Of a stretch of DNA of 64,000 bases, positions 9 through 38,754 are shown in pieces (the stretch's first letter is position 1; each line of letters begins with the position of its first letter). Origin of the DNA: Alphaproteobacteria bacterium (GTDB lineage: Bacteria; Pseudomonadota; Alphaproteobacteria; CAAHEQ01; UBA3637). Below the pieces are notes generated by a model. The model was not told the origin of the DNA and searched no databases. It saw only the letters and a list, made by a program, of their open reading frames with translations. The position numbers and the translations under genes are program-made. The stretch is from positions 12,856 through 76,855 of the forward strand of contig SUVA01000001.1 of assembly GCA_015062245.1 (NCBI GenBank), in the 5' to 3' direction.

Positions 9-716
9 TTATTTAGTCGGCTCAATAACCTCTGACTTTTGTGCCAGATTCGGATTTTGTTGAGGTTGTTTTCCCGGCTGTTGTAAATTTTGTTGAGCTG
101 GCATTGTCGGCGCCTGAACAAGAGGTTGTTGCATATTCGGCATACCCCCCATTTGATTTTGACCAAAAGCAGGTTGGAAACCACCTACACCTTGCGCTCC
201 ACCACCCAAAGATGTCAGCAACGCCATATTGATATCATCAAATAATTTGGTTTTACGTAAAACAGGATTTTGTTCCATATACCACAAAATATTCCGACCC
301 TTTTCATCTGTTTGAGTTATGTCCACATTTGCTTGTTGTAAAAGTTGAATAATATATTCATTGGGTGCATAATAAGCTGCAAACAAAATTAAAGGCACCT
401 TTTTGGGAGCATCCTCAATCGGAAAATCATCCAAAGAAACAATTTGATTGGCACGTTTTAAATCCTGCGATAATAAAGCCTGTAAAACATCCCAATTACC
501 ACGACGTATCGCCAATTGCATCAATGTACCGCCACAACGGGGCACTTCATCAAAATTGACATTTTTATTGATTAAATCTTGAATCTGAGTTGCATCACGG
601 GCATCCCGAACCAATGTTTGAAGCGGTGAATAGGCACACTCTGACTTTTGTGGCGCAGCCTGAACCGGCGCAGACATTAAAATCCCCAAAGCACATGTCA
701 ATAAAAGTTTTTTCAT
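9..716 (-). CDS. Secreted ankyrin-repeat protein with Q/P/G-rich low-complexity C-terminal tail
   Basis: Sec-type signal peptide (MKKLLLTCALGILMSAPVQA); two to three ankyrin-like repeats (GGTLMQLAIRRGNWDVLQALL, GRNILWYMEQN); C-terminal about 70 aa rich in Q, P and G. Confidence 0.55.
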   Translation of the reverse strand: MKKLLLTCALGILMSAPVQAAPQKSECAYSPLQTLVRDARDATQIQDLINKNVNFDEVPRCGGTLMQLAIRRGNWDVLQALLSQDLKRANQIVSLDDFPIEDAPKKVPLILFAAYYAPNEYIIQLLQQANVDITQTDEKGRNILWYMEQNPVLRKTKLFDDINMALLTSLGGGAQGVGGFQPAFGQNQMGGMPNMQQPLVQAPTMPAQQNLQQPGKQPQQNPNLAQKSEVIEPTK

Positions 717-1372: not shown

Positions 1373-2179
1373 TCATAAAAATGTTATTGTCCTCACAACA
1401 AAAGGTTCTTTCATGTCTTTTTTCCCTTTTATTACACATCCTTTATATCCAAATTCACGATTCGGACATTTAGCACATTCCTCTTTTGTTCCCACAGCAT
1501 AGTCTGTATCGCATTCAAACCACTTTACTGCATGATCGTATCTTAAACTTAATGGTTTATTTGGAGGAGATTCTCTAAATTCACAAAAACCATCTTTAAA
1601 AACACGATTAGGACATTTTTGGCAATCTCGTTCCCCTATCAACTCGCTCTCCTCATAACAATCAGAACAAACATGATTATATCCTCCATCATGTCGTTCA
1701 TAAAAAACAGAAATTTGATTGTCTGGACATTTTTTATGACAATAGAACGAATGTTTTCTTTCCCCATTTCTTACATAAGATAAGTATTTATGATATTCCG
1801 CATTCGGGCAAATTGAACAATCTTCTTTTTCTAGAACTATCAATACATTTGAATCTAAATAATCACATGAATAACAGCTACCATAACTTCCTCGTAAAGG
1901 ATTTTCTTTTGGACATTCTTTTAATACACTGTAAATATACTCGCCTTGATCATAAGAAATTCGATTGGAACAAATATCAAAATCTTTTTTATATTTTTTT
2001 TCACCCAACATAAAAAGCGGATAATCGCAACCTACACAATTTCCAAGACCATCCGCAAATGGCTTATCTGCAGGACAACGATCAGAAAAGTAGAATCTTG
2101 GAGTCCAAGAATCACCATAACAATCAGTGGATATAAAAGCGAATAAAACTATTAGAAGTAATTTTCTCATCCTATTCAC
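1373..2179 (-). CDS. Cysteine-rich secreted protein with repeated C-x2-CPN/CPD modules, unknown function
   Basis: Signal peptide; about 30 Cys in 268 aa; recurring CxKCPN/CPDNQ/CPNRxF motifs; lower GC than flanking ftsK and lolA; inserted between ftsK and lolA. Confidence 0.6.
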   Translation of the reverse strand: MNRMRKLLLIVLFAFISTDCYGDSWTPRFYFSDRCPADKPFADGLGNCVGCDYPLFMLGEKKYKKDFDICSNRISYDQGEYIYSVLKECPKENPLRGSYGSCYSCDYLDSNVLIVLEKEDCSICPNAEYHKYLSYVRNGERKHSFYCHKKCPDNQISVFYERHDGGYNHVCSDCYEESELIGERDCQKCPNRVFKDGFCEFRESPPNKPLSLRYDHAVKWFECDTDYAVGTKEECAKCPNREFGYKGCVIKGKKDMKEPFVVRTITFL

Positions 2180-10402: not shown

Positions 10403-11323
10403 ATGAGAAAGCATAAAATTTTAAAAACTTTGGCCGTTATCGGTGCTTTATTTGGCACAACGCCCAAGGCAAAAGCCGCAGGTGCCGAAGATAAACAATT
10501 GGATATCAATGCGGTTGCCGAAGCCACTTTATTCGTCAACGGTGAAAAAACATCCGGTAAAGATGCTTTTGGCGATATAACAGTCCAACCCAAATTTTAT
10601 TTGGAACATGCGGATAATAAAATCGGTTATGAAGGCTCTTTTTATAACGCCAAAACAGAAGGGGTAAAAGCCGGTGATTGGATGACTTTTGTCAGTAAAA
10701 TCAACTTTGAAACAGAAAATTGGGCTGGTTTTATCGGCCGTGACTGTACCCGTTTTAAAACGGCCGGTTATGTAAACTGTCCCAGCACGACGGCTTTTTC
10801 TAATGAGGCACGTTTAAACGGAACCAGCCGTATGATGACCGGTGCCAACCTGACCTATAAACCCTGGGGTTTGGAATTGGGTTACATGGCCAATGACGGT
10901 CGTATGAGCTTTGACCACTGGGATACCGTTATGTTGGGATATAAAAAACAATTTAACGATACTTGGGGCGTTCAGTTCCAGGCCGGCGGCGGCGCCAAAC
11001 CCTTGACCTTCGGTGGTTTAACGGTGGCCTATACCCCCAATAAAGACAATGCCATTGTGGGTGAAGTGATTTACAAAAATCACAAAACAACCGGTGTCTT
11101 AACCGCCAAACACAATTTGACAGACAAATTGGCCCTGTTTGCCGGTATTGAAGTGGGTAAAAAAAGCCATGGTAAAATCGGTGGTATGGCCGAAGCCGGT
11201 ATCCACTATACAATCGGCAAAGGCTTCAGCTTGGTGGGTGCCATCCAACAGGATATCGGTGGCAAACACGCAACCCACGGAGTTATCGGATTACAATACG
11301 TCGGTAACTTTACCACCCGATAA
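10403..11323 (+). CDS. Outer-membrane beta-barrel (porin-like) protein
   Basis: Signal peptide; alternating amphipathic beta-strand pattern rich in G, Y and T; RBS AAAGGAGGA. Confidence 0.55.
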   Translation: MRKHKILKTLAVIGALFGTTPKAKAAGAEDKQLDINAVAEATLFVNGEKTSGKDAFGDITVQPKFYLEHADNKIGYEGSFYNAKTEGVKAGDWMTFVSKINFETENWAGFIGRDCTRFKTAGYVNCPSTTAFSNEARLNGTSRMMTGANLTYKPWGLELGYMANDGRMSFDHWDTVMLGYKKQFNDTWGVQFQAGGGAKPLTFGGLTVAYTPNKDNAIVGEVIYKNHKTTGVLTAKHNLTDKLALFAGIEVGKKSHGKIGGMAEAGIHYTIGKGFSLVGAIQQDIGGKHATHGVIGLQYVGNFTTR

Positions 11324-11439
11324 CCAGCAAAAAAGTTCCCCGTCATTTCGGCGGGGATTTTTTGTTGACAACAAAAAATAATTTGTATATGATGAAACCA
11401 TTATAATGTTTTTAATTTATCAAATTCGGGAGGTATTTT

Positions 11440-12831
11440 ATGAAGCATTTGTCACTATTGACAACATTGTTATTGTCATCATCTATGGTTTATGCGGGAT
11501 GGCTAACCGAAGATTATAAAGGTGATTGCTTGGAAATGATGTGTGATTGTGTGGAAAAAGACGGAATTGGATATTGTTGTCCGTCAGGGACTTCGTTTAA
11601 CGGAAAAGGAGATGCCCATATTGAATATACGCCCTGCAAGTGTTTGGGCGCAAATACATACTATAACACGACCAGCCAAAAGTGTTTATCAAAACCCACA
11701 TGCAATCCATGTCAAAAATTGAATGTAGCCACCGGTACTTGTGTGCCGGATACCTCCAAGAACAATCTGGCAGTCGGCACATGTGGAAAGTGCAACAATG
11801 GTTCGGTTATTACAGATATGACAAAGGTAACCCCCTGTAAGACCTGTAATACCACAAACTGGACATTGACAAATAGAGCCAATGGTCAGGCAGTCGGCAC
11901 ATGTGGAAAGTGCAACAATGGTTCGGTTATTACAGATATGACAAAGGTAACCCCCTGTAAGACCTGTGATACTACAAACTGGACATTGACAAATAGAGCC
12001 AACGAAACACAGGTTCAGGATGTTTGTCATATGTGCAAAGACGGCAATGTTGTATTGAAGGATTCAACAAAACAATTTATTTCCAATAATACTTGTGTTG
12101 AATGTTTGGCTGATTATGGAACAGGTAAATCCGGTGCCTGTACAACTGAAGCAAAGCCATTGTGTCAAAATAATGTATGTCAAGCATGCCCGGCCGGACA
12201 AATTTGGAATGGAACCTCTTGCGCAACACCAAGAATTTGTACTATTTTGTATAAACAAAAAAATAAAGTTGGAAATTCTAGTTACATATCTGGCGAATGT
12301 TGTAGCCCTGATCAAAAACTTGTATCAAGTACAGGTAATACACTTTTTAATGGTTATGATTTAAATAAGACAAAATACGGATGTTGTTCTGCCGATAAAG
12401 CTTATGGAGATAGCAAATGTTGCTCTTCAAGTCAAGAACCAACAAATGATGGTTGTTGTTCTTCAAGTAAAGTGTATACCAAAAACGGCATTAAAAAATG
12501 CTGTGATGGAACGGTGTCTAATAATAAAACAGTGTGTTGTACGAATAAAATAATTACTGTTGATTTTCAGGAAAGTTACACTTTTAAGTTTGATGGAAAA
12601 GTCCATGTTAAAACATATTCTGTTGGTGGAAAACATCACAGCGGTTATTGTCGTGTTTATTTAAATGGAAAACAGATAAATAAACTAGACACAGGTGGAC
12701 ACCAAGAAACAACGATAAATAAAGAAGCAGATATAACTGTCAAAAACGGCGATCGTATTTCTGTCGATGGTCATCGTGGCAGAGGCTGGCAAGAATACAT
12801 AAAAATCACATATCCCGTTTGCGACGGATAA
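11440..12831 (+). CDS. Cysteine-rich secreted protein with CC doublets, an internal 40-aa tandem repeat and a Cys-poor C-terminal beta-rich domain
   Basis: Signal peptide (MKHLSLLTTLLLSSSMVYA); many CxxC and CC motifs (CCSSSQEPTNDGCCSSSK); C-terminal about 100 aa lacks Cys. Confidence 0.65.
   Translation: MKHLSLLTTLLLSSSMVYAGWLTEDYKGDCLEMMCDCVEKDGIGYCCPSGTSFNGKGDAHIEYTPCKCLGANTYYNTTSQKCLSKPTCNPCQKLNVATGTCVPDTSKNNLAVGTCGKCNNGSVITDMTKVTPCKTCNTTNWTLTNRANGQAVGTCGKCNNGSVITDMTKVTPCKTCDTTNWTLTNRANETQVQDVCHMCKDGNVVLKDSTKQFISNNTCVECLADYGTGKSGACTTEAKPLCQNNVCQACPAGQIWNGTSCATPRICTILYKQKNKVGNSSYISGECCSPDQKLVSSTGNTLFNGYDLNKTKYGCCSADKAYGDSKCCSSSQEPTNDGCCSSSKVYTKNGIKKCCDGTVSNNKTVCCTNKIITVDFQESYTFKFDGKVHVKTYSVGGKHHSGYCRVYLNGKQINKLDTGGHQETTINKEADITVKNGDRISVDGHRGRGWQEYIKITYPVCDG
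11769..12002 (+). repeat. Near-perfect 120-bp tandem duplication (2 copies, 2 mismatches) inside the Cys-rich gene
   Basis: ggcagtcggcacatgtggaaagtgcaacaatggttcggttattacagatatgacaaaggtaaccccctgtaagacctgt... recurs at 11769 and 11889; encodes AVGTCGKCNNGSVITDMTKVTPCKTC(N/D)TTNWTLTNRAN. Confidence 0.9.
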
Positions 12832-12870
12832 ATCCATCAGGTCTATTTTGTATGATAGATGTTCTGGTGA

Positions 12871-12897
12871 AACACAAAAAACGGACGCTTTTGACGG
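12871..12897. terminator. Bidirectional rho-independent terminator
   Basis: ACGGACGC-loop-GCGTCCGT hairpin flanked by an A-run and a T-run. Confidence 0.6.
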
Positions 12898-12925
12898 CGT
12901 CCGTTTTGATTTATCCGACGGGTTA

Positions 12926-13510
12926 TTAAAAATAATAACGGGCGGATAACAACACATCATGCGAACGGATATTGTCCTTGACGTGTTCGCCTGTTGCCTT
13001 TAATTTGGAACGGCCTTCGCCCAAATCAACATAGCGATAGCCTAAATCCAAGCTCCAACAATCATTTAAGCGGTAATCAAAACCGGCACCCAAAGTCCAA
13101 GCAAATTCCATTTTGTCATCACCTTTGGTATGTGAATTGCTGTCGGTTTTGTTATAGCTCATACCCAAACCGCCCATCGCATACATTCCCATTTTTTGCC
13201 ATGGAATATTGACATACACATTGGCCAAAGCCGGAATAGACCATGTATCGGCTTCGTGTCCGTCCTGTTTAATTTTACCCCATCCACGCATACCAACGGT
13301 AATATCACCACGCAAATACGGATTCATATGGTAACCGCCACCAACGGCAAACACGCCGGATTCTTTATAATCTTTATGACCAAAGCCAAAACCGGCCTGC
13401 ATAACGGCATAACCATGATGCATACCCATTTTATAATCTTCGGCCTGGGCCCCAAAAGACGTACCAATTAAGCCCACAACAGCCAAACTTGATAATAATA
13501 ATTTCTTCAT
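12926..13510 (-). CDS. Small outer-membrane beta-barrel protein (OmpW/OmpA-N-like)
   Basis: Start at 13510 (MKKLLLSSLAVVGLIGTSFGAQA) with RBS GAAAGGAGAA; C-terminal ...SARYYF ends in aromatic F as in OMPs. Confidence 0.6.
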   Translation of the reverse strand: MKKLLLSSLAVVGLIGTSFGAQAEDYKMGMHHGYAVMQAGFGFGHKDYKESGVFAVGGGYHMNPYLRGDITVGMRGWGKIKQDGHEADTWSIPALANVYVNIPWQKMGMYAMGGLGMSYNKTDSNSHTKGDDKMEFAWTLGAGFDYRLNDCWSLDLGYRYVDLGEGRSKLKATGEHVKDNIRSHDVLLSARYYF

Positions 13511-13715
13511 TTGATTTCTCCTTTCGTTTTTTATCAGTTGAAGCAAGATTACACTGGGGTGCCAAACAAATAAATTCCAGCCTTTTGTTCCATTTTTTTT
13601 AAAAAAAATATCCTTTTATGTCAGATACATATACATGTATTGGCTTTGATAAAAAATAGTTCTTGATTTTTAAGATAAATATATTTAAACTGACAAAAGA
13701 ACAAAAGGATATAAA

Positions 13716-24966: not shown

Positions 24967-25059
24967 GTTCGCCTCCTTACATATATTATACCACAATTTT
25001 GAAATTTGTCATAAAAAACTTTCTTTTTGGCAAAAAATATGATAAAATAAGACTGTTAT

Positions 25060-25365
25060 CTGATGATAACTATGATACTAAACGGCAAGTGGAATAGATG
25101 TTGTGGACTCGGGGGCAGTACCCGACGCCTCCACCAAAAAAATTATGGGGGCGACACAGATTCGACACGCATAGTAAAGATTTGACCTTGTATCCGGTAT
25201 GGTAGCACCGTTATCGCGCTGAAAAAAATAGATGCAAACGATAATTTTGCACCTGTTGCAATGGCCGCCTAATTTAGGCGTCTGATGTGACGAATGATTC
25301 TGAAACTATTTGTACGTTTCAGTGGGGTTTGGGGTGAACCTAGCAACAGAATCACCCCACTTTTA
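25060..25365 (+). ncRNA. ssrA: tmRNA (ssrA), two-piece circularly permuted form
   Basis: Acceptor piece ends ...TCGGG-GGCAGTA-CCCGA-CGCCTCC-A-CCA at about 25136. Ten nt later the coding piece begins GGGGGCG (pairs with CGCCUCC), then ACACAGATTCGACA. Tag reading frame GCA AAC GAT AAT TTT GCA CCT GTT GCA ATG GCC GCC TAA (ANDNFAPVAMAA*) at 25234..25272; terminal hairpin GTGGGGT...ACCCCAC plus TTTT at about 25322..25364. Ends approximate. Confidence 0.75.
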
Positions 25366-36018: not shown

Positions 36019-36603
36019 ATGCGTTTTTTCACTTTTGTTTCGGGATTATTTATCGCCCTACCCCTTTGGGCAAATGATTTGATGAATTTAAGAAGTTACG
36101 GCAATGATTCGCCCAACAAACTATATTTATTTTCGTCATTGGCCTGTCCGCACTGTGCCCACTTTCATCAGGATGTTTTACCTGAAATTGAAAAAAACTA
36201 TGTAAAACCCGGCAAAGCAAAAATCGTGATGGTAGATATGGTTATGAACAATGCCAGCTTATTGGGTGCCATATTGTTGCGTTGCGCCCCAAAAGAAAAA
36301 CAACACGAAATTGAAAAAGAATTATACCAAGAACAAAAACAGTGGGCCTTTGATGAAAAAAAAGCCAAAATATTTTTGGCTGATATTGCCCATAAATACG
36401 GAATTTCCGCCGGTGAATTTGAAACGTGCATTCAAAATAAAGATTTACAAAAAACAATTATTACCGACCAAAAAAAATTATCCGCTACTTATGGCATCAC
36501 CCATATGCCAACCCTTATGTTTCGCAAAAATGAACAGGTGTTTTTATGGAAAGGAAGCGAAAAAGACGAAATTATGACAGGCCTTTCCCAAGCTTTTGAA
36601 TAA
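36019..36603 (+). CDS. dsbA: DsbA-family thiol:disulfide oxidoreductase
   Basis: Signal peptide; thioredoxin-fold CxxC active site (LACPHCAHF). Confidence 0.7.
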   Translation: MRFFTFVSGLFIALPLWANDLMNLRSYGNDSPNKLYLFSSLACPHCAHFHQDVLPEIEKNYVKPGKAKIVMVDMVMNNASLLGAILLRCAPKEKQHEIEKELYQEQKQWAFDEKKAKIFLADIAHKYGISAGEFETCIQNKDLQKTIITDQKKLSATYGITHMPTLMFRKNEQVFLWKGSEKDEIMTGLSQAFE

Positions 36604-37411: not shown

Positions 37412-38605
37412 TTACTTACATAACACACTGCTCAGCGTGAAATCCCATCCATCACGACCTTGTTGAGAACCTGTTCCGTTCATATACATCGGATAATTAC
37501 AATCCGAATATATAGTATTTATGCAAGAAACCCAACCATGCGCAGCTATTGAACAGGATCCAAATAATTCTGCACAACCCAATTCTTCGGGTTTGACCAT
37601 TTTCTCTTTTCCACCACATATGGCCACGCCATCACTGAAAGAAACTCCTCCGGAAATATTAACTTGAGTTCCTATCCGATTCCCTTCAGAATCTTTTATT
37701 TCTGTACAAGAAGATGGATTTTCAGCACAATAATCCTCATATTTTGGAAGCTCTTTGTTCGGATTTAAACAAATACATTTTTCCAAACTATTATCACAAA
37801 CTGCATACGCACCAGCACGCATTTCTTCCGCTGTGCATTCTGCGCAATCATACACACCACATGCAACAGCATTGCTGGATACAGCACAAGACCAACTACC
37901 ATTTACTGATTGATACCAATATCCCTTTAAAGCATTACAGCATTCTTCACCTGTACAGTCTTTTGTTCCAAATTCACATTTGCCATTCGAACAAGTGGTT
38001 GTTTTACCATCGGCGGTGGTGCAAGAATCTGTTGATGAAATATCACCTGTTTCAGAATCACAACATTGAGAGTCATATCCCACACAACAATCTTTTTTAC
38101 ATTCACCGCCACACCATTTATAGCCGGCAGCTTCGCACTTTCCACCTGTTGCGTCATCGTTATAATCAGCGGCGACTTTGTCGCTGGATAAATTATTATT
38201 ATAGGTTAAGGTCAATGTTGTTTCATTACATTCGGCTTTGCGAACCATGCCGCCTGACATCTTTTCCATTTGCTCACATACGGCCGAATCCATACCGGTG
38301 ATTTCCATTTTAAATTGTTCGTCATTGACTTTTTCCGGTGTGCCAAATGTTCCATATTTACCATTGCCAAAATCTTGAACATTTAGGGGTTTATCGGTTA
38401 GAATTTGGGAGGATATGGTGGTGGCAAGCATACTGGCCTGATGTAATAATTCATTCGCTTTGTGTTTTTTCATGGCGACACCATAACCATATACACCACC
38501 CACGGACAAGACACCCACGATGGCCAGTACGCCCAGCATTTCAACCATACTGCGCCCCTTTTGGCTTCTTTTATAGTTTTTGTTTGTTTTATTTTTTACT
38601 GACAT
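37412..38605 (-). CDS. Type IVb prepilin-like protein with large cysteine-rich C-terminal domain (candidate minor pilin / tip adhesin)
   Basis: Start at 38605 with RBS GAAAGGAGTC. 17-aa basic leader ending in Gly (MSVKNKTNKNYKRSQKG), then RSMVEMLGVLAIVGVLSVGG with Glu at +5, resembling TcpA/CofA N-terminal helices. About 380-aa mature part has some 40 Cys including CC doublets. Confidence 0.6.
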   Translation of the reverse strand: MSVKNKTNKNYKRSQKGRSMVEMLGVLAIVGVLSVGGVYGYGVAMKKHKANELLHQASMLATTISSQILTDKPLNVQDFGNGKYGTFGTPEKVNDEQFKMEITGMDSAVCEQMEKMSGGMVRKAECNETTLTLTYNNNLSSDKVAADYNDDATGGKCEAAGYKWCGGECKKDCCVGYDSQCCDSETGDISSTDSCTTADGKTTTCSNGKCEFGTKDCTGEECCNALKGYWYQSVNGSWSCAVSSNAVACGVYDCAECTAEEMRAGAYAVCDNSLEKCICLNPNKELPKYEDYCAENPSSCTEIKDSEGNRIGTQVNISGGVSFSDGVAICGGKEKMVKPEELGCAELFGSCSIAAHGWVSCINTIYSDCNYPMYMNGTGSQQGRDGWDFTLSSVLCK

Positions 38606-38650
38606 TTTTTGACTCCTTTCTTTTATTTGTTCAGACAGTAAATACCTTTT

Positions 38651-38740
38651 GTCATTCCCCACTTGATGGGGCATCCATAAGGATTTAATTCTATGGATCT
38701 TCGTGTCAAGCACGAAGATGACAGTGATGGGGTGGAATGA
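38651..38740. repeat. MITE-like element of about 90 bp with terminal inverted repeats (GTCATTCCCCAC ... GGGGTGGAATGAC), copy 1
   Basis: The 5' 27 nt GTCATTCCCCACTTGATGGGGCATCCA and the terminal GGAATGAC recur at 63489..63575; internal hairpin CTTCGTG-tcaag-CACGAAG. Confidence 0.45.
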
Positions 38741-38754
38741 CAAATACAGTTTAA

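Follow-up and report, generated by a model that had tools for sequence, protein, structure and literature searches.

How did a gene come to carry two adjacent 120-bp units that differ at only two positions, and what sort of protein is built from them? The question is posed by a 463-codon gene in a 64,000-nucleotide stretch of contig SUVA01000001.1 (positions 12,856 to 76,855 of the forward strand, assembly GCA_015062245.1), which we call the window and which belongs to the metagenome-assembled genome (MAG) "Alphaproteobacteria bacterium." An original prediction, made from the DNA alone, took the repeat in this disulfide-rich secreted protein to be either a very recent duplication or a sign of ongoing copy-number variation. 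Comparison with related loci leads us to an older array that was secondarily homogenized by gene conversion, in a protein family whose members appear to exchange segments with one another. The gene and its two repeat units are placed as follows.

11440..12831, + strand: coding sequence, 463 aa, NCBI MBE6445812.1, locus tag E7021_00125
11769..11888, + strand: repeat unit 1, encoding a putative stalk module of the form CxxC-x14-CxxC
11889..12002, + strand: repeat unit 2, of the copy-2 type

Evidence for gene conversion in an old two-copy array

Tandem Repeats Finder and a direct reading of the bases agree on the repeat. The program gives a period of 120 with 2.0 copies over 11769..12002 (98% matches, score 454), and 11769..11882 and 11889..12002 are identical at 112 of 114 positions. 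One mismatch (A at 11848, G at 11968) exchanges Asn for Asp, and the other (C at 11853, T at 11973) is silent. Similarity between the units ends at ...GCCAA, which is followed by GGTCAG (Gly-Gln) in unit 1 and by GAAACACAG in unit 2. Chance cannot have produced a repeat this close to perfect; the tandem structure, its two mismatches, and the N/D difference stand as first described.

DNA from 13 related loci was obtained for comparison. In L005, L006 (P0001), L007 (P0002), L002, and L004 (P0003), the two units differ at 14 to 17 of 111 core positions, and when these diverged arrays are compared, each unit groups with its counterpart in the other arrays (unit 1 with unit 1, unit 2 with unit 2). 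L005 and L006 are of the same gene type as the window (97% identical overall). For the two L005 units, synonymous divergence (dS) is ~0.6, and the ratio of nonsynonymous to synonymous divergence (dN/dS) is 0.12. Based on the number of differences, this dS, and this dN/dS, we conclude that arrays in this species group normally consist of two diverged copies kept under purifying selection.

The window departs from that state within unit 1, which is of the copy-2 type, identical to unit 2, from its start to ~11847, whereas positions 11848 and 11853 and the GGTCAG linker are still of the copy-1 type. Both mismatches thus sit exactly on sites that are diagnostic for copy 1 versus copy 2. Because unit 1 keeps the copy-1 diagnostic bases and linker at its 3' end, we conclude that intragenic gene conversion, rather than a fresh duplication, gave rise to the near-identity of the window units and that the two-copy state is older than the near-identity of the copies. 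The idea of a very recent duplication is given up on the same grounds, and on account of the diverged two-copy arrays in sister alleles. Nor is the homogenized array an assembly artifact, because it recurs base for base in two independent assemblies, L017 (JGI, a 53-kb contig) and L018 (ENA). The latter is a different paralogous locus with PGI downstream.

Variation in module number

Across the family the module is present in 0, 1, or 2 copies. L001 (P0004) differs from the window over 11545 to 12035 solely by the absence of exactly one 120-bp unit. L016 (P0031, 423 aa) is an L005-type gene with unit 2 only, and P0034 provides a second example. The L016 allele is a clean unit loss by comparison with L005-type arrays, as the units are 14% diverged and assembly collapse would not produce it. 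Within gene type D, P0036 (419 aa) has two copies versus one in P0004 (379 aa). Even the three paralogues in the window's own MAG are not alike: one has two homogenized copies, one two diverged copies (P0003, E7021_03195), and one none (P0068, E7021_04770). No allele with more than two copies was found among the alleles and paralogues compared.

The second half of the original prediction, ongoing copy-number variation, is thus borne out, with one-copy derivatives in two backgrounds (L001/P0004 and L016/P0031, P0034) and paralogues with 0, 1, or 2 copies. Relatives do not all share one identical two-copy state, as a fixed structural repeat would have it, and purifying selection on the module is still strong. 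A contingency locus, in which short repeats shift the frame or the promoter, was considered and rejected, as the unit is 120 bp long and in frame and all variants (0, 1, and 2) keep the frame. A collection of metagenome contigs contributed no further copies: peptide patterns matched 44 stretches, none of which passed a tblastn check, and an exact 31-nt repeat pattern had no match, even though JGI contigs with the gene are known from another collection; the content of the two evidently differs. Taken alone, the conversion history and the copy-number variation are very probably as described here.

Probable exchange of segments between paralogues

The divergence between alleles is patchy. Of the mismatches between the window and L005, 47 lie in the first 684 nt compared and 4 in the 1208 nt that follow (Fisher p = 3e-17). 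They fall in patches of 18 to 40% divergence (the signal peptide, unit 1, a portion of unit 2, and 12036..12048), and between the patches are stretches of 67 and 95 nt without a difference and one of 265 nt at 1.5%. In the patch at 12036..12048, 6 of 15 bases differ from L005 and one (12040) from L007. L007 is similar to the window from 11414 to 12194, and similarity resumes at 12836, just past the stop codon; the 641 nt between (aa 253-463) are replaced in L007 by 543 unrelated nucleotides, with the same downstream genes. The paralogues share ~780 nt at 91 to 97% identity.

The genes on either side change as well. Upstream there is a gene for a DUF3187-like outer membrane protein (OMP) in the window and in L008 (another species), RecJ in L001 to L003 and L005 to L007, and YceD in L017 and probably also in L004 (same 34-aa open reading frame [ORF], L005-like upstream sequence). 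Downstream there is either a set comprising OMP_b-brl, bPH_2, and an Obg-like gene or PGI. From 11545 on, L017 and the window are identical over at least 3.9 kb, but upstream they are unrelated (YceD and the OMP gene, respectively); the transition, at 11414..11545 of the window and 5975..6105 of L017, reflects either a recombination breakpoint within the gene's first 105 nt or a join made in assembly. Because several of these arrangements were recovered more than once, from independent samples (L002/L003, L005/L006, and L019/L020), we read the patchy divergence and the changes of context as real homologous exchange between paralogues.

An exported protein family with a constant N-terminus

The remaining parts of the window protein are as follows.

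11440..11502, + strand: signal peptide, aa 1-21, probable cleavage after VYA; a patch 24% diverged from the closest allele
11503..11649, + strand: family-defining N-terminal Cys-rich domain (W..YKGDCLEMMCDCVE..GYCCPxGT...H..YTPCKC), kept across all paralogues and species
12003..12194, + strand: further CxxC modules of the putative stalk, common to type A, B, and C genes
12195..12835, + strand: exchangeable C-terminal cassette, aa 253-463
12220..12540, + strand: CC-rich linker module, aa 261-367, also in the VWA-like members P0017, P0019, and P0020
12541..12828, + strand: C-terminal all-beta head of 8 strands, predicted jelly roll, best matches C1q/TNF-like

An exported, Cys-rich protein had been predicted, and this description holds. 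The N-terminus, MKHLSLLTTLLLSSSMVYA with GW after the cleavage point, resembles a Sec signal peptide as judged by eye, and the 463 residues include 43 Cys (9.3%), 8 CxxC motifs, and 7 CC motifs. The C-terminal beta-rich domain is not free of Cys as had been stated, since C404 and C461 lie in it. Apart from a weak DUF1451 match, no Pfam family was found for the window protein at an E value of <=0.1, no NCBIfam model matched, and a search of PDB sequences returned nothing significant (best, ginkbilobin, E = 0.076). The DUF1451 match is below the cutoff (E = 0.056, 14 bits versus 26.1), and a zinc ribbon-like CxxC spacing is present in each repeat unit. Given the exported location, we consider disulfides more plausible than zinc binding by the CxxC pairs.

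The first search returned 28 homologue clusters that have the N-terminus alone in common. Alignment A1 of the family has 18 invariant positions: W21, K27, G28, C30, E32, M33, C35, C37, V38, C46, C47, P48, G50, T51, H60, C66, K67, and C68. Family membership is defined by a signal peptide together with the N-terminal YKGDCLEMMCDCVE...GYCCPxGT...H..YTPCKC domain, and the window protein has both. Behind this domain come differing combinations of small Cys modules, in some members long CxxC repeat arrays, and then C-terminal domains that are mutually unrelated and of at least five beta-rich types. Weak, subthreshold Pfam and PDB hints describe some of these domains as VWA-like (P0017 and P0020), Ig-like (P0002), or C-type-lectin-like (P0022); no Pfam model scored above threshold in the ten family members scanned or in the window protein. 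There are at least four paralogues in each of two species-representative MAGs (of two other species) and at least three in the window's own MAG (E7021_00125, E7021_03195, and E7021_04770). Within these searches, the family is undescribed, is without a Pfam or NCBIfam model, and is seen solely in uncultured Alphaproteobacteria that are represented by metagenomes only.

The same N-terminal domain opens a 1997-aa member at L014 5932..11925 (SGB_4814, JAZKXR010000007.1), which has ~20 CxxC...NR repeats, motifs that by eye are reminiscent of lectins and VWA domains, and, at the C-terminus, a series of GYYCP/AGTYS repeats similar to GCC2/GCC3-type modules of eukaryotes. In a close relative, at L017 1738..2637, a few kilobases upstream of the family gene, there is another Cys-rich protein, of 299 aa and with the Pfam annotation EGF_Teneurin.

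A predicted jelly-roll head

A single-sequence model of the C-terminal 105 aa is an all-beta domain of 8 strands (pLDDT 75, pTM 0.63). When it was compared with the PDB by Foldseek, jelly rolls of the C1q/TNF type came out on top (cerebellin, E = 1.3e-4, TM ~0.6), and further matches were to C1QL, adiponectin, TNF ligands, the N-terminal lectin of BC2L-C, and Ena3A. A library of viral structures gave C1q-domain, collagen-repeat, and tail-fiber proteins. These similarities are those of a generic beta-sandwich, at 10 to 18% identity; they fit a ligand-binding head and do not prove one. The Pfam C1q and TNF models do not match the window protein at the E <= 0.1 cutoff.

The sequence of the head appears almost unique. 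An exhaustive HMMER comparison of the C-terminal 105 aa with 1.84 billion representatives found P0001, which represents the 90%-identity cluster that contains the window protein itself, and beyond it only three weak, multistretch matches. These are to giant adhesins with Ig/cadherin repeats (25% identity, crossing domain borders) and were rejected as homologues, the likeness being of a generic beta-strand kind. A full-length AF2 model from a 22-sequence alignment is unreliable (pLDDT 45); its best-scoring part is aa 41-100 (10-residue block means of 63 to 83), and the rest is modeled as short hairpins. The suggestion of a C-terminal binding module is plausible in light of the predicted C1q/TNF-like jelly roll and its cassette-like replacement by unrelated domains in other alleles and paralogues.

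Comparison with recombining surface protein families

Recombining families of surface proteins that vary in size and sequence include Vsa of Mycoplasma pulmonis and Msp2/P44 of Anaplasma. As in these, a constant 5' end that encodes a signal peptide comes with alternative 3' parts, the number of in-frame tandem repeats is variable, and paralogues exchange segments by gene conversion. The present family differs in that all of the paralogues seen look complete and most have a promoter-like -35 box upstream, in that no site-specific recombinase or silent cassettes were found for it, and in that its variation is seen between strains or samples. Giardia variant-specific surface proteins (VSPs) have a constant C-terminal transmembrane segment with a CRGKA tail and a variable N-terminus. 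They too are a large exported family rich in CXXC with a variable ectodomain, whereas the family described here has the opposite polarity and no transmembrane segment. Assignment to the VSPs themselves (PF03302) was rejected: CxxC motifs are present, but there is no Pfam match, and the C-terminal beta domain ends in PVCDG with no hydrophobic segment.

A C1q/TNF-like head on a stalk is also seen in BclA of the Bacillus exosporium, in the BC2L-C N-terminal lectin, and in phage proteins with collagen repeats and C1q domains. Compared with BclA and the C1q type, identity is 10 to 18%, there is no Pfam C1q match, and the putative stalk of the window protein consists of disulfide/CxxC modules, not collagen. 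The best architectural analogue is provided by the mosaic adhesive trimer (MAT) fibers of Bdellovibrio bacteriovorus, in which the N-terminal domain is invariant and a stalk leads to C-terminal tips that are swapped (PMC10769870). MAT stalks are trimeric beta-helices or beta-prisms and not Cys-rich, in contrast to the putative stalk of the family here, and no sequence similarity was detected between the two. A bioRxiv report on "cysteine-rich repeats" (10.64898/2026.06.07.730663) was set aside as not relevant, since the spacing there is different (Cx6-9Cx5-7Cx8-11Cx7-8CC).

Proposed explanation and its alternatives

The reading that we favor, with somewhat better than even confidence for the package as a whole, is that of a recombining family of exported, Cys-rich stalk-and-head proteins that are targeted to the envelope and bind ligands. 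The protein would be exported by Sec and then stabilized by disulfides. The conserved N-terminal Cys-rich domain of ~50 aa, with a putative role in export or envelope anchoring, would keep it at the envelope; a chain of small CxxC...CxxC modules of variable content would form the stalk; and the exchangeable C-terminal head, consisting of the CC-rich linker and the predicted C1q/TNF-like jelly roll, would bind the ligand. Surface display, an adhesive or ligand-binding role, and a selective value of stalk length are what we infer from this architecture. In the window's lineage, intragenic gene conversion made most of the unit identical between the copies, and an array homogenized in this way can afterward collapse to one copy via unequal recombination. 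The same process between paralogues leads to the patchy divergence, the head swaps, and the strain-specific flanking genes.

Several observations weigh against this reading or complicate it. In L019/L020 (type D, two copies), unit 1 is of the window type but unit 2 is diverged, and the "ITDM" variant also occurs in L008, the positional orthologue in another species; on these grounds, the conversion history comprised multiple steps, and the donor and direction of the last conversion are not fixed. The original array may have come from unequal exchange between paralogous modules that were already diverged, and dS therefore gives no date for the duplication. The comparison sequences are all metagenome contigs, apparently from short-read assemblies, and a minority of joins could be chimeric across the shared ~780-nt 5' region. 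Because no lipobox, beta-barrel, or known anchor motif is present in the window protein, it could be periplasmic or released.

Two alternatives concern the repeat and its surroundings, and we consider both very improbable. If a single-copy module had been duplicated de novo in recent time, the two mismatches would be new mutations; the 98% identity of the copies and the existence of the otherwise identical one-copy allele L001 would be in keeping with this. But the mismatches and the GGTCAG linker are the ancestral copy-1 state of the diverged arrays in L002, L005, and L007, a linker that duplication of an L001-type unit cannot yield, and diverged two-copy arrays occur in gene types A, B, C, and D. 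Misassembly of paralogues or strains might likewise be invoked for the repeat, the one-copy forms, and the varying flanks, as the data come from metagenome contigs throughout, the common ~780 nt is 91 to 97% identical among paralogues, two family genes lie at contig ends (L008 and P0068), and L017 equals the window from 11545 on with a different upstream region. It is countered by the identical array in three independent assemblies (the window, L017, and L018), by the replication of L002/L003, L005/L006, and L019/L020, each in different samples, and by L016, which is without exactly unit 1 of an array with 14%-diverged units, something that repeat collapse would not do.

The other two concern the function of the protein. 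A polymorphic toxin or bacteriocin-like effector, in which the N-terminus serves for export and the variable C-termini are toxins accompanied by immunity genes, is improbable. The constant N-terminus, the variable C-terminus, and the cassette replacement bounded by the stop codon would suit such a system, yet no immunity-like ORF lies downstream: the stop codon is followed, without any intervening ORF, by a terminator-like hairpin (12878..12907) and the convergent OMP gene, and other paralogues are followed by PGI. In addition, the heads resemble beta-sandwich, VWA-like, or lectin-like binding folds, not enzymes, and scans of the window protein and family members found no Pfam toxin domain. 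A better case can be made for an exported Cys-rich protein that is not displayed on the surface, being periplasmic or released as a soluble binder or metal chelator, with a neutral module number, and we regard this as unlikely rather than remote. The protein shows no anchor motif, the CxxC-x14-CxxC spacing is reminiscent of a zinc-ribbon knuckle, DUF1451 matches weakly (E = 0.056), and the module sequence is under strong purifying selection with no sign of selection on copy number. On the other side, a strictly constant N-terminal domain with diversified heads is the pattern of anchored fibers and adhesins, such as Bdellovibrio MAT (PMC10769870), and the heads include weakly VWA-like and lectin-like domains. 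On balance, we retain the recombining stalk-and-head family as the preferred account.

Expression signals and genomic surroundings

Signals predicted around the gene are listed below.

11337..11357: terminator-like hairpin of the preceding gene
11365..11393, + strand: sigma-70-like promoter, TTGACA-17-TATGAT, 11 of 12 matches
11428..11433, + strand: ribosome-binding site, GGGAGG
12878..12907, scored on the - strand: terminator-like hairpin between the gene and the convergent OMP gene
12893..12905, + strand: shorter terminator-like site overlapping the 12878..12907 hairpin

With promoter-like and terminator-like sites of its own, the gene looks monocistronic. A -35 box of the TTCTTGACA type is visible 5' of most other paralogues inspected, and homology with other alleles starts near the ribosome-binding site (11414-11428). 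The GC content is ~40%, and the contig that carries the gene is 161 kb long. Beta-barrel OMP genes stand on both sides, at 10403..11323 (+ strand; DUF3187, weakly, E = 1.9e-4) and at 12926..13546 (- strand; OMP_b-brl, E = 6e-20). This bracketing is probably coincidental, because other paralogues are without such neighbors. Also adjacent are a gene for a bPH_2 protein and an ORF whose size and position are those of the Obg-family GTPase of L007. The neighbors scanned are mostly housekeeping genes (FtsK, Hda, HisRS, LolA, and ComEC; there is also a GH3 enzyme), and a secretion or pilus operon context was therefore rejected.

Other Cys-rich ORFs in the window had been grouped with this gene. Homology of 11440..12831 with 1373..2179 and 37412..38743 was not found, every pairwise BLASTP comparison giving an E value of >0.1. 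The protein of 37412..38743 (- strand) is Cys-rich, has an N-terminus like that of type IV pilins or pseudopilins (KGRSMVEMLGVLAIVGVLSVGG), and weakly matches the NCBIfam model "prepilin peptidase-dependent protein" (E = 0.007). We take it to be, in all probability, a pilin that carries a large, disulfide-rich domain at its C-terminus. The exported protein of 1373..2179 (- strand) is made of CxxCPN(R)xF repeats, which match those at the C-terminus of P0028, a distant member of the family (27.5% identity over 189 aa, E = 4e-5). As for the DsbA homologue proposed at 36019..36603, a thioredoxin fold with weak DsbG/DsbA-like matches is present, but the matches are below curated cutoffs and the ORF is 23 kb off with no evident linkage.

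Elsewhere in the window there are a permuted (two-piece) transfer-messenger RNA at 25044..25363 (+ strand; tag peptide ANDNFAPVAMAA), which fits an alphaproteobacterial origin, and, adjoining LolA, an ankyrin-repeat protein at 9..716 (- strand; Pfam Ank_4, E = 1.3e-6). Ankyrin repeats in bacteria are mostly discussed in connection with eukaryotic hosts.

Implications

The value of this locus lies in an undescribed family with a clear record of recombination rather than in the duplication itself. The family fits a known kind, that of recombining modular adhesin-like families, and it offers a clear natural example of an intragenic repeat that evolves in concert while modules are lost and paralogues swap heads. 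Its paralogues seem to be recombination substrates that alter local gene order, which is relevant to the assembly and binning of these genomes. With at least three to four paralogues per genome, a fixed N-terminus, a disulfide stalk, and interchangeable heads, it is a candidate adhesion or recognition apparatus. More tentatively, and as a possibility that we would not yet bet on, the paralogues may form a repertoire of recombination-driven, cysteine-knuckle stalk-and-head surface fibers, in which exchange between paralogues swaps heads, alters stalk length, and inverts or translocates segments, thereby retargeting the cell to host, protist, or bacterial ligands. If so, these uncultured Alphaproteobacteria would have a fiber repertoire functionally analogous to Bdellovibrio MAT or phage tail fibers.

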